Part shown: positions 18,067 to 22,568 of the stretch, one piece after another
How the letters are laid out: the number at the start of each line of letters is the position of its first letter
How positions within the stretch are numbered: the stretch's first letter is position 1
Assembly (NCBI GenBank): GCA_050950505.1
Contig: JBMNHS010000001.1
Coordinates: 256,001-320,000, forward strand
Length of the DNA: 64,000 nucleotides
Source: Candidatus Methanomethylophilaceae archaeon
GTDB lineage: Archaea > Thermoplasmatota > Thermoplasmata > Methanomassiliicoccales > Methanomethylophilaceae
Direction: 5' to 3'
Position numbers and translations under genes: made by a program
The notes under the pieces: model-generated
Told to the model about the DNA's origin: nothing
Databases searched by the model: none
The model's input: only the letters and a program-made list of their open reading frames with translations

Positions 18067-18243
18067 ATTTCTGACTCTCCCGACATTGGGTAAATCTGTC
18101 GTATGCTGGTTTTGTTTATAAAACTTACCTGGATTTTCCCTGTTATAATATTGCTTCAAACCCACGGTATGTCCGTACGCCCGACGACGTGTATATCTTC
18201 CGTTATCTTTAATACTGATTGTGTGATAGCAACGTCCGATATC

Positions 18244-19275
18244 ATGATTAGATTCGGACCTGCGGGCATACCGCTATCGTGCAAGGGCCGTACCCTCAAG
18301 GACGGAATCGAGGATGTTCACAACCTCGGACTCACCGCAATGGAGATTCAGATGGTCAGGCCGAACAGTTACGCGAGACCGCCCGAAGAGGAAGAAATCG
18401 GGATGACGATTAAAGATATCCAAGAGGATTTCGTCGTCGAGATTGTCAGGGACGGGATTCCGATGAACGATCCTGAACTTTCCATAGAGGAAGACGACGA
18501 TCTGCTTTATATTTCATCCGCGGTGTCCGACACCTTCGGTTCTCTTTACGAAATCGGAGAAATCGCCAAGAGAATGGATGTCACCGTGTCCATCCACGCA
18601 CCTTACTACATGGATCTGGGAACCGAGGCCCCCCTGGCCGAAATGTGCCTGGAAAGCATCAGACACGCGGCTTTGATTTTGAACGCTTTGGACGGCACCA
18701 CCGTCGTGACGAGTCTGGGGTTGTACGAAAACGAGGACCGCGAAGATGTTGACGCCCGCATTTACGAAAACGTTGTGGATCTGATGGACTGGTGGGCCGA
18801 TGAAGGGATAAAACCCAAACTGGGTATCGAAATAAGCGGGCACCAGGAAACCTTCGGATCTCTGGAACAGATTCTGGATCTGTGCACCGAGTTCGAGAAC
18901 ATCGTTCCGGTGCTGAACTTCCCCCGTCACCACGCACGCACCGACGGGTCTTTGCTCGAAGTCCAGGATTTCATTGACGTCATCGAAACCGTTCAGCCTT
19001 ACAGCGACGGTTCCGTTTATTCCCAGTTCTCCGGCGTGGAACACAGCGACGGCGAAGAAAGGAAACTCACCCCCATCAAGAAAGGGGATCTGAGATTCGA
19101 AACTCTGGCCGACGCGCTGACCGAAATTACGCCGGACATTACCATAATTTCCTGTTCCCCGTTGCTGGAACACGATGCCATGTACATGAGAATCATCGAA
19201 GAAAGGGTTCTCAGCAAGAAGGTCGCCAAGAACCTCAAGGAAATGAGAAAGCAGGCGGCGAAAGCAGAGGAATGA
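18244..19275 (+). CDS. endonuclease IV-like TIM-barrel protein, degenerate, with inserted domain
   Basis: 'IRFGPAGIP', 'SIHAPYY', 'FGSLEQIL', 'SPLLEHDA' match archaeal Nfo; several metal ligands are substituted. Confidence 0.85.
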   Translation: MIRFGPAGIPLSCKGRTLKDGIEDVHNLGLTAMEIQMVRPNSYARPPEEEEIGMTIKDIQEDFVVEIVRDGIPMNDPELSIEEDDDLLYISSAVSDTFGSLYEIGEIAKRMDVTVSIHAPYYMDLGTEAPLAEMCLESIRHAALILNALDGTTVVTSLGLYENEDREDVDARIYENVVDLMDWWADEGIKPKLGIEISGHQETFGSLEQILDLCTEFENIVPVLNFPRHHARTDGSLLEVQDFIDVIETVQPYSDGSVYSQFSGVEHSDGEERKLTPIKKGDLRFETLADALTEITPDITIISCSPLLEHDAMYMRIIEERVLSKKVAKNLKEMRKQAAKAEE

Positions 19276-19278
19276 TAC

Positions 19279-19812
19279 ATGGATCCGGCGCTGGAATACC
19301 TTTCGAAGAAATGCCTTGAGACCGCCGCTCAGGTGTCCGAGGAAGAAAGGGAGAAGCTTGCCGCCCTCATTTCCACCAACCGGAAGATTTTCATTTACGG
19401 TTCGGGAAGATCCGGACTTGTCGGCGAACTGTTCGCGGTGAGACTTGTTCAATTGGGTCTCGACGTTCATCTGGTGGGTGAAATGACCACGCCGATCATC
19501 GGCCGGAACGATCTCACCATACTGATATCCAACACCGGGGAAACGTCTTCTGTTGTCAAAACCGCGAACATCGCGGGACGGATCGGTTCTTACGTCGTGT
19601 CTTTCACTTCGGATTCCCGAAGCAAACTCGCCCATGCCTCCGACATGGTCATTCTTTTGCGTCCGGCCTGCATAAACCCCGAATACGCCCCGTTGGGAAC
19701 GGTGTTCGAAGGTTCGGCTCTCATGTTCTTCGACAGTTTCATCGCGGATCTTATGAAAAAATTCGATTGCGGCGAAACCGAAATGAAAGGCCGGCATGCG
19801 ATTTGGGTTTGA
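19279..19812 (+). CDS. SIS-domain 6-phospho-3-hexuloisomerase-like protein
   Basis: 'IFIYGSGRSGLV', 'VGEMTTP', 'SNTGET', 'APLGTVFE'. Confidence 0.85.
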   Translation: MDPALEYLSKKCLETAAQVSEEEREKLAALISTNRKIFIYGSGRSGLVGELFAVRLVQLGLDVHLVGEMTTPIIGRNDLTILISNTGETSSVVKTANIAGRIGSYVVSFTSDSRSKLAHASDMVILLRPACINPEYAPLGTVFEGSALMFFDSFIADLMKKFDCGETEMKGRHAIWV

Positions 19813-20331
19813 TCACAAGTCCTCGGATACGACCATCCGGGCTTTTCTGAAACTCCCGTCATCGTTCACGAACACCGACATTGTCTGTTCCGAGGGATCC
19901 AAAACCGCGGAGAATCCGGTTTTTTCACCGAATATGTTTTTGTGGGTTTTCATGTCCGTGTCCGACATGTAACAGCCGAATCCGGGGTGGGAATGGTACC
20001 ATCCCACCACGGTTCTGCATTTGTTCTCATCCATGGATGAGAACAAATCCTCCAAAGCCTTCGGATCGAACCTTACGCTTGTGTCCGTAGCCACGAGTCC
20101 CGAGGTGGCGGTGCCTTCCGCCACCGCGTATTCCCCTTCGCCGTCCACGTAAACCTTGCCCATCAGGAGTCCCATGACTTCTTTGTTGTCCCCGTACCCC
20201 AAATCGGCATGGAAAGCCATTTTGGAAATCACGCTTTCTCCCATGAACAGTTCCGCTCCGGGAACGCCGCGGTTCCTGAATTCTTTGACTCCCTCTTCCG
20301 AGGATATTATTTTAGGCATCTGTACCGCCAT
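19813..20331 (-). CDS. JAMM/MPN+ metalloprotease, Rpn11/CSN5-like (putative deubiquitinase)
   Basis: 'EVMGLLMG' and 'VVGWYHSHPGFGCYMSDTD' complete JAMM motif. Confidence 0.92.
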   Translation of the reverse strand: MAVQMPKIISSEEGVKEFRNRGVPGAELFMGESVISKMAFHADLGYGDNKEVMGLLMGKVYVDGEGEYAVAEGTATSGLVATDTSVRFDPKALEDLFSSMDENKCRTVVGWYHSHPGFGCYMSDTDMKTHKNIFGEKTGFSAVLDPSEQTMSVFVNDDGSFRKARMVVSEDL

Positions 20332-20803
20332 AGCTTACCTTCGCCGAGAATTTAGGTTTATTGGAAGAATACCATTCCGCCGCCGCGACGCAGGACTCCG
20401 TCCCGTAAGGATTCATGGGGTTCGGGGCGGAGATGAGATTTTCGATTCCGATGATGAACGAAATGAGATTGGAACCGAAATTCCAATTCTCGGATATTTT
20501 CAAACATACCAAGCCCCCGTCTTCGGGCATCATGATGTTCGGATGAAATATCTCGGTTCTCCAGTTTACTCTGGGTCTTTCGTAAGGATATTCGTCGGAT
20601 ATCACCAGATCGAAACGGTGGCGGTCCGTTTCTTTATCTCTTGTTGCTTTTGCGGGAAGGTTGAAAAGACATACGCTCAGGATTATTGGAAACCCCGCAT
20701 CTTCCGGTATTGAGTCCAATCCCGTGTCGAAGTAATCGTTGAGTGTTTCAATTTCGTTGTTTAGTCTTTTCATCAGAAGAGGTTTCGCCAATCCCATGGT
20801 CAT
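20312..20803 (-). CDS. ubiquitin-conjugating enzyme E2 (UBC fold)
   Basis: 'KRL..E', 'EYPYERPRV', 'IFHPNI...GLVCL', 'W', 'LISAPNPMNP'. Confidence 0.92.
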   Translation of the reverse strand: MTMGLAKPLLMKRLNNEIETLNDYFDTGLDSIPEDAGFPIILSVCLFNLPAKATRDKETDRHRFDLVISDEYPYERPRVNWRTEIFHPNIMMPEDGGLVCLKISENWNFGSNLISFIIGIENLISAPNPMNPYGTESCVAAAEWYSSNKPKFSAKVSYGGTDA

Positions 20804-21039
20804 CCGCCTTCCGGGTCCGGAATTATTTCAACCACGTCCCCGTCGCAGAGATTCATTTCCTCAACGGTTCTGGACCCCGGCAGAAGTTTCGTTCCTTTCT
20901 TGAGAACGAAGGCTTCGGCGCCTTCCCCCCAGTAACTTGTGGCGATTTCGATGATTTCCGCCATTTTTTCATGAGGTTCGAGTTCCATTCTCAACGAAGA
21001 TTTCGTTATCATGTTAACAACTGTGATTTTTACCGTCAT
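20800..21039 (-). CDS. ubiquitin-like modifier ending in di-glycine
   Basis: 79 aa, beta-grasp pattern, C-terminus IPDPEGG-stop; lies between E1 and E2. Confidence 0.9.
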   Translation of the reverse strand: MTVKITVVNMITKSSLRMELEPHEKMAEIIEIATSYWGEGAEAFVLKKGTKLLPGSRTVEEMNLCDGDVVEIIPDPEGG

Positions 21040-21040
21040 T

Positions 21041-21796
21041 TCAATCCCACCTGTAATTGGGACACGCTTCGTCCATGTCCAGGGAAACCGTGTCCATGGT
21101 TCCCCTGACCCCGTCGTAAAAAGTTATGTTTCTGATACAGAGATCTTCTTTCCCCGAAGCTATCTTTTCCGCTTCCCTGACCTGCATCGCCGCGACTATG
21201 GAAGTGGTGGTTATTTCCGCAGGAAGCAGCGGAGGGGCGTTTGCCGAACCGGTGCAGGAGAATCTTGAATTCAGAACCTTGACGTGACTTCCGTTGATTG
21301 CGCAGTTCAGACACGGACCGCCGGGAAGAACGGTCTGAACTTTGCCCCTCATTCCGTCCGTCCCTCCGTCCACATACGGGATTCCGTGGTAAATCGCGTG
21401 GGAATTGGTGTGAAGCCTTGCGGAGATGTTGTCGAGGCAGCCCAGAATCAGATCGTAATCCCAGTCGTCGATTTCCTGGATCTTTGAATTGATTCCTTTC
21501 ACGTTCATGTTCGGGGACTGCCGGTTGGCACGTTCCGCCAGAACATGGGATTTGATCAGACCGCAATCGCATTCCCTGAAAAATACGCAACGGCTGAGAT
21601 TGGAAATTTCCACACGGTCCATGTCCACCACCGTGAGGTCCCGGAAACCGGCAAGGATCATGCATTTCAGGACTTCGTTCCCCAAAGCCCCGGCACCGAC
21701 GACCAGACATTTCAAACGGGAAAAACGGTCCACATCCATCCAGGAAATACGCCTCATGCGGTCGTATCTGTCTTCTTCCGATGTACTCCGCACCAT
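21041..21796 (-). CDS. ubiquitin-activating enzyme E1 (ThiF/MoeB/E1 family)
   Basis: 'RYDR', 'VVGAGALGNE', 'DMDRVEISNLSR', 'CLDN..AR', 'DGGTDGMRG', CxxC, 'FSCT' candidate catalytic Cys. Confidence 0.92.
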   Translation of the reverse strand: MVRSTSEEDRYDRMRRISWMDVDRFSRLKCLVVGAGALGNEVLKCMILAGFRDLTVVDMDRVEISNLSRCVFFRECDCGLIKSHVLAERANRQSPNMNVKGINSKIQEIDDWDYDLILGCLDNISARLHTNSHAIYHGIPYVDGGTDGMRGKVQTVLPGGPCLNCAINGSHVKVLNSRFSCTGSANAPPLLPAEITTTSIVAAMQVREAEKIASGKEDLCIRNITFYDGVRGTMDTVSLDMDEACPNYRWD

Positions 21797-21870
21797 CGTC
21801 CCGAATATTTGAAAGTGTCAATAAAATATTATCCGTTGATGTTAATATAATTGTATAGGACGGTTCCATA

Positions 21871-22254
21871 TCATGATTGGTCTTGAATCTCCAATATTTT
21901 TTTGAAGCATACGGGAACCTGATGGCAAAGTTCCTGTCCGCAGTAAACCGTAACCGTGCCTTCGGCACGTTTACGGATTGAACTTTCCCAATCCGGGAAT
22001 TCGGAGACGAAATGAATCAGCACCGTCGAATCCCGGGGGAGGGAATCTCCGAGGACGCTTTCCGGATTGTCTTTTTCTCCGATTACAAAAATATTTTCTT
22101 CCGGAAACCTGTTTTTTAGAAATTCATAAAAATCTTCCAGGAGTCTGACCTGCCCCATTCTTCTTTTTCCGGTCATCATCGCTCCGTCCCCGGAGCCCGC
22201 AAAGGATTCCATTCTCTGTTCGGAAAGAACGTCCGTTTCCGGAACACAGTTCAT
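21871..22254 (-). pseudogene. degenerate N-terminal fragment of AAA_14-type ATPase (or derived small protein)
   Basis: 'MTGKRRMGQVRLLEDF...PEENIFVI' resembles 'ITGxRRxGKSxLL...PEENIIYI' with the Walker A Lys lost; only 127 aa. Confidence 0.45.
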
Positions 22255-22568
22255 TTTATCTCGATGATAACGTCGGCTTTCAGGCCCATGCCCGATGCGA
22301 CTTCTATGGCTTTCATGAAAGCACAGGGAACCGGACAGGCCGTATGGTTGATTATATCGTCCGCCGCACGGTATACTTCGGATTCGGAAAACTTCACGCA
22401 GATGTTCTGAAAGGGATCCACCGACCCCAAAGTTTCCGCCAGTCTCGTGATGTCCGCACAGTCGCTTTCGACGTCGAAGACCACCCGCATGTCGTCGTTC
22501 ATTGTTGCCTTTATTTTGGTTTTCAGTTTACATACTCCGGGCTGTATGTCAATGTTGCATTCACTCAT
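22251..22568 (-). CDS. conserved Cys-rich hypothetical protein (DUF6951-like)
   Basis: 'PGVC', 'ESDC', 'HTACPVPC..KAIEVASG'. Confidence 0.75.
   Translation of the reverse strand: MSECNIDIQPGVCKLKTKIKATMNDDMRVVFDVESDCADITRLAETLGSVDPFQNICVKFSESEVYRAADDIINHTACPVPCAFMKAIEVASGMGLKADVIIEIK

Follow-up and report, generated by a model that had tools for sequence, protein, structure and literature searches.

A ubiquitin-like conjugation operon in a Methanomassiliicoccales archaeon and a candidate membrane-anchored RING partner

Does a compact archaeal operon for a ubiquitin-activating enzyme (E1), a ubiquitin-like modifier (Ubl), a conjugating enzyme (E2) and a JAB protease work without a ubiquitin ligase (E3), or is the ligase encoded elsewhere? 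The question is raised by four genes in a stretch of 64,000 nucleotides (nt; positions 256,001–320,000 of contig JBMNHS010000001.1, assembly GCA_050950505.1; here referred to as “the window”) from Candidatus Methanomethylophilaceae archaeon, a member of the order Methanomassiliicoccales in the phylum Thermoplasmatota, whose genome of 1.33 Mb is 99.6% complete. A preliminary description of the window had proposed a ubiquitination operon without an E3, possibly E3-independent. As far as computation tells, this part of the proposal is not supported: a RING-like, putatively membrane-anchored candidate is encoded outside the window, co-occurs with the E2 among related genomes, has counterparts inside the operon in other families and, in a predicted complex, docks on the E2. 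We therefore read the operon, with a probability of about 0.7, as part of a chromosomal, vertically inherited E1–E2–RING–ubiquitin–Rpn11 system of the Caldiarchaeum/Asgard type whose membrane-anchored E3 has been relocated. That the four genes encode a protein-conjugation cascade, taken alone, is highly probable.

The four proteins encoded by the operon

The genes are co-oriented in the order E1, Ubl, E2 and JAB (Table 1). E1 is separated from Ubl by 1 nt, Ubl and E2 overlap at an ATGA, and E2 and JAB overlap by 20 nt; both coordinates and junctions were found again as first described. The operon also resembles the surrounding DNA in G+C, as had been said of its composition. The AT-rich region 5′ of E1 was likewise recovered, with 31% G+C vs 49% across the window, and is a probable archaeal promoter judging from its letters. 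Among the loci of relatives, the sequence at this place varies between families of the order.

The E1 matched the Pfam family ThiF with 154 bits (cut-off 28.1) and carries the nucleotide loop GAGALGNE and the motifs SNLSRC and DGGTDGMRGK. GAGALGNE, SNLSRC, the pair C162-x2-C165 and Cys181 (in RFSCTG) are invariant in all 27 aligned E1s. The pair likely forms a zinc site that is completed by Cys245 and the nearly invariant His248 (C245-x2-H248), while Cys181, in a short crossover loop, is the candidate catalytic cysteine. The protein possesses no separate Cys domain, no C-terminal ubiquitin-fold domain and no rhodanese domain. Its nearest solved structures are UBA3, UBA1 and UBA2 (E 4e-25 to 1e-21), with MoeB behind (4e-15); UBA7 and UBA6 complete the solved relatives at E<=1e-10, and UBA5 is not among them. 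The earlier claim of a UBA3/UBA2-type enzyme with GxGxxG, SNLSR and Cys181 is thus well founded. Moreover, the genome contains three ThiF paralogues, and the two others are a MoeB/UbaA-like protein and a ThiF adjoining a ThiG-like gene; therefore the operon E1 is an extra, dedicated enzyme. In fact, the NCBIfam UbaA model gave only 83 bits against a cut-off of 450, and the ThiF, MoeB and UbaA models all stayed below their cut-offs.

The Ubl has sub-threshold sequence matches only (YukD, E 0.044; the MoaD-family model TIGR01687, E 0.0017). Its AlphaFold model (predicted local distance difference test, pLDDT, 87) resembles SUMO1, ubiquitin, NEDD8, ISG15 and Caldiarchaeum ubiquitin in Foldseek, with template-modelling (TM) scores of 0.8–0.88 and E of about 1e-7, the Caldiarchaeum protein (6fno_D) at TM 0.88. 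The C-terminal PDPEGG is invariant in the 24 aligned orthologues. Nothing follows the Gly-Gly here, which corresponds to a mature form; among the orthologues Gly-Gly is terminal in 8 and followed by 1–11 residues in 16.

The E2 reached 52.9 bits with UQ_con (cut-off 27), and HPN87-89, the catalytic Cys100, Trp107 and PNP127-129 are invariant in 26 of 26 sequences, in agreement with the HPN motif and Cys100 picked out before. Its best 60 solved matches are all eukaryotic E2s (E about 1e-10 with the protein, 1e-12 to 1e-14 with the profile). Finally, the JAB protein gave 48.2 bits with Pfam JAB (cut-off 22.5), and its JAMM motif is complete, with a Glu (in EVMGLL) and HSHPGFGCYMSDTD, the pattern H-x-H-x7-S-x2-D. 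The nearest solved structures are CSN5 (6e-13) and Rpn11 (1.5e-11), followed by the Caldiarchaeum Rpn11 homologue (6e-8), and the near-Rpn11 motif reported earlier was accordingly recognized. The gene is the only one of its kind in the genome, and the NCBIfam desampylase model gave 38 bits vs a cut-off of 130. Profile and structure searches thus agree with the assignments of the preliminary description, with ThiF, UQ_con and JAB above their cut-offs and the ubiquitin/SUMO fold of the Ubl recognized from its model.

The JAMM motif is retained by the JAB genes of 37 out of 39 related loci. The JAB genes without it belong to two genomes of genus g2 in which the E2 and RING genes are still present; they are possibly an early stage of decay or non-catalytic MPN proteins.

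Table 1. Features of the operon, the RING candidate and loci of relatives (coordinates without a prefix are window positions; aa, amino acids, for open reading frames)
Feature	Location	Strand	Length	Description
E1	21041–21796	minus	251 aa	single-domain ThiF/UBA-type Ubl-activating enzyme
Ubl	20800–21039	minus	79 aa	ubiquitin/SUMO-fold modifier
E2	20312–20803	minus	163 aa	canonical UBC-fold conjugating enzyme
JAB	19813–20331	minus	172 aa	JAB/MPN+ metalloprotease, Rpn11/CSN5-like
AT-rich intergenic region 5′ of E1	21797–21870	minus	74 nt	TATA-like runs 20–60 nt before the ATG
RING candidate	G000:C1:683897–684490		198 aa	outside the window, about 400 kb from the operon; weak zf-RING_2 match
Cluster in f15, two genomes				E1, 3155- or 3183-aa protein with C-terminal RING, Ubl, E2, JAB
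Cluster in f33, two genomes				E1, 3134-aa RING protein, E2, JAB
Cluster in f33, one more genome				RING protein, E2, JAB; contig ends within the RING gene
Cluster in f35				409-aa membrane RING protein, E1, Ubl, E2
Seventh locus fetched				323-aa RING protein next to E2, plus an E2–JAB fusion
JAB genes without JAMM, genus g2	L020:1949–2380; L041:6449–6850	plus		
Giant proteins	L157:1164–10631; L163:1119–10670; L158:1250–10654	plus	3134–3183 aa (all four)	
Giant protein	L159:5194–14598	minus		
Apparent E2–JAB fusion	L162:6518–8152	plus	544 aa	matches the E2 profile (1e-40) and the JAB protein (2e-23)
Second RING-profile match	G000:C1:142144–142245			E 4e-5; rejected as RING
DUF5817 protein	L156:1453–1929 = G000:C1:142096–142572	plus	158 aa	zinc-ribbon protein
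Gene upstream of E1	21871–22254	minus	127 aa	no family
Gene further upstream	22251–22568	minus		DUF6951 (110.8 bits)
TIM-barrel gene	18103–19275	plus		xylose-isomerase-like

A RING-like candidate and its ties to the operon

We scanned the genome for zf-RING_2, RINGv, Prok-RING_1, Prok-RING_4 and U-box domains (HECT was not searched), and none reached its cut-off. The best sub-threshold match, zf-RING_2 with 17.8 bits, fell on the 198-aa candidate, which consists of one strongly hydrophobic N-terminal helix, a RING-like domain and two zinc ribbons. Among 26 aligned orthologues, seven ligands of the pattern C-x2-C-x11-C-x-C-x4-H-x2-C-x6-C-x2-C are invariant and the eighth is found in 24. All 26 are matched by zf-RING_2 at E<=0.1 (best 2e-6) and 21 of them by Prok-RING_1; Pfam RINGv gave no match on the candidate. 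A word-based protein search found only two clusters, without a name or a Pfam domain, and says little because the family evolves fast.

The RING part of the AlphaFold model has a pLDDT of 90–97. The Foldseek matches listed belong to RING or U-box domains from E3 ligases, with weak E of 3e-3 to 0.1, and VIA-align gave Z of 5.1–6.4 and a root-mean-square deviation of 1.5–2.5 Å over 43–59 residues, spanning residues 79–129.

A second match of the RING profile in the genome was rejected, as neither the first Cys pair nor the His is present in it. It falls in a DUF5817 zinc-ribbon protein that shares the C-x-C-G-K...C-P-Y-C half of the RING pattern (Table 1).

The candidate and the E2 go together across the order. 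Both were found in 110 of the 151 genomes and neither in 36, with the E2 alone in three and the RING alone in two. Within split genera the same genomes are positive for both (7/13 in g2, 3/6 in g24, 7/8 in g6), and genera g7 (0/19) and g19 (0/4) have neither. The five E2-less complete genomes examined all keep the genes that flank the operon, while the operon itself is gone or decayed. One type of relic is an E1–Ubl–JAB remnant in which the Ubl is without Gly-Gly, the JAB without His-x-His and the E1 without SNLxR; other types are an E1 without the GxGxxG loop beside a dead JAB, a weak JAB relic, and a Ubl-only relic without Gly-Gly. Judged from their sequences, these look like natural stages of loss. 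In the same five genomes the RING gene has disappeared from between its two conserved neighbours, leaving 316–580 nt, and profile searches of these empty slots gave no RING relic better than E 0.7. The decayed loci are L095 (genome G030), L094 (G100), L096 (G076), L092 (G104) and L093 (G096); GWFRTS replaces the GWYHSH of JAB.

Moreover, in six of the seven loci fetched from other families this same RING domain is part of the orthologous cluster, and the seventh has a RING protein next to the E2 (Table 1). As for the giant proteins of 3134–3183 aa, the C-terminal RING is their sole recognizable part, and the one of 3155 aa (L157) has no Pfam match at E<=0.001. The apparent E2–JAB fusion adjoins a second E2 and the 323-aa RING protein.

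A direct contact was also predicted. The complex of the E2 with the RING domain obtained a score of 0.64, and the best of three controls obtained 0.04; 58 of 80 solved complexes and 2 of 110 mismatched pairs attain the mark used for this score, rough counts since own alignments were used. Three runs agreed in at least 93% of the contacts, with partner pLDDT of at least 73. The contacts join E2 residues 5–20 (helix 1) and 108–112 to RING residues 10–17 and 36–45. In the model, the predicted interface is the canonical face used in solved E2–RING complexes.

The neighbours of the RING gene suggest where the tagged proteins go. It heads a run of three co-oriented genes, followed by one of 108 aa and then by psmA, whose product was recognized as the proteasome alpha subunit (199 bits with Pfam Proteasome, together with the N-terminal signature of alpha subunits), and an HdrA-like gene is divergent to this run. 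Of 16 loci within the family of this genome, 15 share the arrangement and the sixteenth is cut short. In 15 loci of other families the 1.5-kb flanks end before psmA, and the 108-aa gene lies about 1.1 kb off in two. The 108-aa gene has no Pfam or NCBIfam match; we assume a likeness to RNase P Pop5, which neither database confirmed, and the gene is left unnamed. Because the RING gene is directly upstream of psmA, proteasomal degradation is the most likely fate of tagged proteins; we put the proposal that they go to the proteasome a little short of even odds.

Several points weigh against the reading of a relocated RING ligase. First, the assignment of the candidate is uncertain at the level of sequence and fold. 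Its own RING domain scored 19.4 bits with zf-RING_2 (PF13639) vs the curated cut-off of 27.3, so that it resembles a RING domain with membership of this family below threshold; the Arg/Lys linchpin directly after the last zinc ligand is not conserved; and, as is to be expected with a domain of 50 residues, its matches to solved structures are weak, with the same Z range reached by ZZ and p300 zinc fingers. Second, kin genomes are not independent, and the counts of co-occurrence thus overstate the number of events. Genome G041 (99% completeness) has the E2 and no RING match to a single-protein query. The RING profile also matches E2-less families (15/24 genomes in f27, 4/4 in f9, and also f11, f14 and f31), either because a RING-like domain works there with another partner or because the profile has reached its limit of specificity. 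The rows in f27 are open frames of about 650–1,500 aa. Third, E2–RING complexes have been solved many times, and the complex score may therefore reflect likeness rather than binding. The E1, judged from its sequence, departs from a fully canonical RING mechanism in having no ubiquitin-fold domain for E2 recruitment. The proteasome link is drawn from gene order only, and unrelated housekeeping genes lie in the same region. Finally, one metatranscriptome library (one RNA-labelled run) gave two short contigs, 19763–20194 and 20717–20871, of which the second spans the Ubl/E2 junction, and contigs from such libraries show neither transcription nor co-transcription; a second run is probably DNA.

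The alternative that survives best takes the operon at face value: it works without an E3, the E2 passing the Ubl directly to targets as in the bacterial Bil system, and the RING-like protein is unrelated. A RING gene lies in or beside the operon in none of the 39 related loci of the order, the two being unlinked throughout it, so that not all components are clustered in one operon. The missing family match above a curated cut-off and the unconserved linchpin favour this alternative too, and in the available portions of its description bacterial BilABCD consists of E1, E2, Ubl and a deubiquitinase without a named E3 (10.1101/2023.09.26.559546). Nevertheless we consider it unlikely: E2 and RING are either both present or both absent in 146 of 151 genomes, decay of the operon goes with loss of the RING, other families place the same RING domain between E1 and Ubl/E2, and the predicted E2–RING interface is canonical.

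Distribution, alternative readings and a proposed mechanism

Is the system a housekeeping one or a mobile defence? The preliminary description had left this choice open and had suggested long residence. We analyzed 39 related loci, of which 19 come from the family of this genome and 20 from other families in the order. All of them retain the order E1–Ubl–E2–JAB, and all have the same convergent neighbours after JAB, namely a 6-phospho-3-hexuloisomerase-like SIS protein and a xylose-isomerase-like TIM-barrel protein. The operon thus sits by ribosomal-protein and sugar-phosphate genes at a position fixed across the order, as long residence would have it. The E2 is present in 113 of 151 genomes and 30 of 34 genera of the order. 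In a profile search of 401 sampled genomes of the phylum it was found in 91, including 14/14 in family f13 and 4/5 in f30; it was not found in f10 (0/27), f16 (0/36) or f27 (0/24). PADLOC gave weak matches only on the operon. The fixed locus, the surrounding-like G+C, the weak PADLOC matches and the extra E1 together argue for housekeeping conjugation rather than a mobile defence or a sulfur-carrier pair. The operon is therefore more likely chromosomal, long-resident and vertically inherited than mobile or defence-like, and of the two roles the housekeeping one gains by the constancy of the locus and the antiviral one loses by the weakness of the PADLOC matches.

An antiviral function, in which a relative of Bil or of Cap2/Cap3 in the cyclic oligonucleotide-based antiphage signalling system (CBASS) tags virus proteins, appears quite improbable. 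The operon does comprise the same four kinds of protein as Bil, and the PADLOC models of CBASS E1–E2 (1.6e-13, on the Rossmann part of E1), BilD (5e-5) and JAB (4.5e-5) matched to some extent. On the other side, PADLOC gave no match for the Ubl and only E of about 0.01 for the E2; the E2 is a canonical HPN UBC protein and the 251-aa E1 has one adenylation domain; and the chromosomal position is fixed across the order, with G+C like its surroundings, rather than in a variable island.

Still less probable is that sulfur transfer is the main task of the Ubl–E1 pair, in the manner of MoaD/ThiS or of the small archaeal modifier proteins (SAMPs), with conjugation secondary. The weak MoaD-family match of the Ubl and the sub-threshold ThiF/MoeB/UbaA matches of the E1 would fit this, and the available text of PMC11354881 ascribes dual roles to SAMPs and Urm1. 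However, the genome has two other ThiF paralogues (of MoeB/UbaA and of ThiF type), the E1 is without a rhodanese domain, the model of the Ubl is closest to SUMO and ubiquitin, and a conserved E2 cysteine, a JAMM protease and a RING partner serve no sulfur transfer. A UFM1-type system (UBA5/UFC1) was rejected, as no UBA5 is among the solved relatives of the E1 and the E2 matches UQ_con and the E2s of ubiquitin, NEDD8 and SUMO.

For the relocated E1–E2–RING system that we prefer, we infer all steps of the following scheme. The small E1, probably a homodimer like MoeB/UbaA, would adenylate Gly79 of the Ubl, which would then be held as a thioester on Cys181 of the E1 and passed on to Cys100 of the E2. 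The RING protein, anchored by its N-terminal helix, would bind helix 1 of the E2 and the loop after Cys100, and would promote the transfer of the Ubl to substrate lysines, probably on the membrane or close to it. JAB would strip the tag and, in those relatives that have residues after Gly-Gly, would also mature the Ubl. Proteasomal degradation of the tagged proteins would be the weakest step.

A broader reading is more tentative than the proteasomal fate itself: Methanomassiliicoccales and many other Thermoplasmatota might run a complete ubiquitin–proteasome pathway outside Asgard/TACK, in which the E3, a membrane-anchored RING protein, is co-encoded with the proteasome alpha subunit, as a prokaryotic counterpart of ubiquitin-dependent quality control at membranes (similar to endoplasmic-reticulum-associated degradation), and has diversified in large-genome relatives in the way of eukaryotic E3s.

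Relation to known systems and minor observations

To our knowledge, all reconstitutions of eukaryote-like ubiquitylation from archaea have used uncultured lineages, namely Caldiarchaeum and Asgard. The available portions of PMC5654768 and PMC6043591 describe operons of ubiquitin, an E1-like and an E2-like protein, a small RING finger protein and an Rpn11 homologue, and report for Caldiarchaeum an E1/E2/RING-E3 cascade in vitro whose Rpn11 homologue matures pro-ubiquitin; the linchpin residue of the Caldiarchaeum E3 is required (R69A; PMC5654768). The present system shares these five kinds of component, the RING being a candidate, with canonical UBC motifs in the E2, a JAB that groups with Rpn11/CSN5 and not with archaeal desampylases, C-terminal extensions of the Ubl that need cleavage in most relatives, as in pro-ubiquitin, and a predicted E2–RING contact via helix 1 and loop 7 of the E2. 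It differs in several respects. First, the candidate RING gene lies beside psmA at a distance of about 400 kb from the operon, and its product is putatively membrane-anchored, with 2–4 extra zinc ribbons, ligands that are C4HC3-like and not RING-H2, and no conserved linchpin Arg/Lys. Second, the E1 of 251 aa carries its candidate Cys in a short crossover loop and has no C-terminal ubiquitin-like domain. Third, the gene order is E1–Ubl–E2–JAB, with JAB within the operon, and the host is a methanogen of the Thermoplasmatota.

With BilABCD of types I and II the operon shares the four-gene set of E1, E2, Ubl and JAB, a JAB with a role, putative here, in maturing the Ubl, and an E1 without a ubiquitin-fold domain. 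According to the available parts of the source, BilD has an inactive and an active adenylation domain and BilB a Cys/His motif (10.1101/2023.09.26.559546); unlike the present system, Bil is a sporadic defence with an E2 that lacks HPN and goes unmatched by similarity of the UQ_con type, and an E1 with two adenylation domains in one chain. We found a BilD match of E 5e-5 over 100 residues and no BilA, BilB or BilC among the matches listed, and the same locus in 39 of 39 cases is unlike a sporadic island. With SAMP/Urm1 systems (the E1 UbaA, SAMPs and HvJAMM1) it has in common a beta-grasp modifier with a C-terminal Gly-Gly, an E1 of ThiF type and a JAMM protease. SAMPylation, however, needs no E2 or E3, whereas here a dedicated, conserved E2 and a RING candidate are present, the UbaA model is far below its cut-off and a separate MoeB/UbaA-like paralogue exists.

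Eukaryotes possess membrane-anchored RING ligases of protein quality control, namely the RING-CH/MARCH/Doa10 proteins and Hrd1. The candidate is similar to them in its predicted transmembrane anchor, a cytoplasmic cross-brace zinc domain of C4HC3 type, a putative pairing with a UBC-type E2 and the suggested proteasome link. It has no detectable sequence relationship to MARCH, Doa10 and Hrd1 beyond the RING superfamily, and a single helix instead of a polytopic membrane part.

Parts of the system have been reported. In public databases, orthologues of the E2 are named “ubiquitin-conjugating enzyme E2” in metagenome-assembled genomes of Methanoplasma, Methanomethylophilaceae and Methanomassiliicoccaceae. 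For Methanomassiliicoccus luminyensis, a paper of 2015 pointed out an Rpn11-like protein (PMC4453063), and a 2023 preprint shows a clade labelled “Ca. Thermoplasmatota E2” that branches deeply among the E2s of archaea (10.1101/2023.07.25.550441). The statement that E2 cascades are characterized in Caldiarchaeum and Asgard archaea is thus right for biochemistry and too narrow for the rest, these two items having been published. Our own placement of the system is based on the rankings of solved structures and on the statement of that preprint. The available portions of a 2015 survey of archaeal ubiquitin toolkits do not mention Methanomassiliicoccales methanogens (PMC4327156). As far as the accessible parts of PMC5654768 go, all archaeal assemblies of February 2017 were screened there and an additional “Cluster III” appears in Supplementary Fig. 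1 only; the operon may already be drawn in that figure. No account of the operon in Methanomassiliicoccales, or of a RING partner for it there, turned up in full-text searches. The operon, in short, belongs to a known type of system, and we regard its proposed split architecture, with a putatively membrane-anchored RING beside psmA, as new.

If the reading is true, several consequences follow. The order has cultured members, in which one could test in vivo what archaeal ubiquitylation does for the cell. A system of this type would be stably established in the chromosomes of an entire order of host-associated methanogens, as well as in many other Thermoplasmatota, and the origin or spread of E1–E2–RING cascades would be placed beyond the Asgard/TACK branch. 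The likely missing ligase would have been identified as the RING protein that is anchored in the membrane and encoded beside psmA, and the tag-carrying cysteines, the E3-binding surface and where to seek substrates are predicted. Moreover, the repeated joint loss of operon and RING in some gut genera would offer natural knock-outs for comparison.

As for neighbouring genes, two coupled genes lie upstream of E1 on the same strand (Table 1). A homologue of the 127-aa protein is present in only one of the 39 related loci and of the DUF6951 protein in none; neither is a conserved partner, and both appear to lie outside the system. In fact, no fifth conserved gene was found beside the operon in these loci. 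The TIM-barrel gene near the operon gave a sub-threshold match to UAE_UbL (E 0.014; 16.3 vs 30.8 bits), most likely by chance.

A last observation concerns relatives with large genomes of 3–5.5 Mb (G221, G281, G305, G295, G227, G267 and G318), in which the kit is expanded. Matches to the RING domain number at least 16 in four of them and 7–13 in the others, many in open frames of 1,000–4,900 aa, and matches to the E2 profile reach seven in G295 and five in G267.

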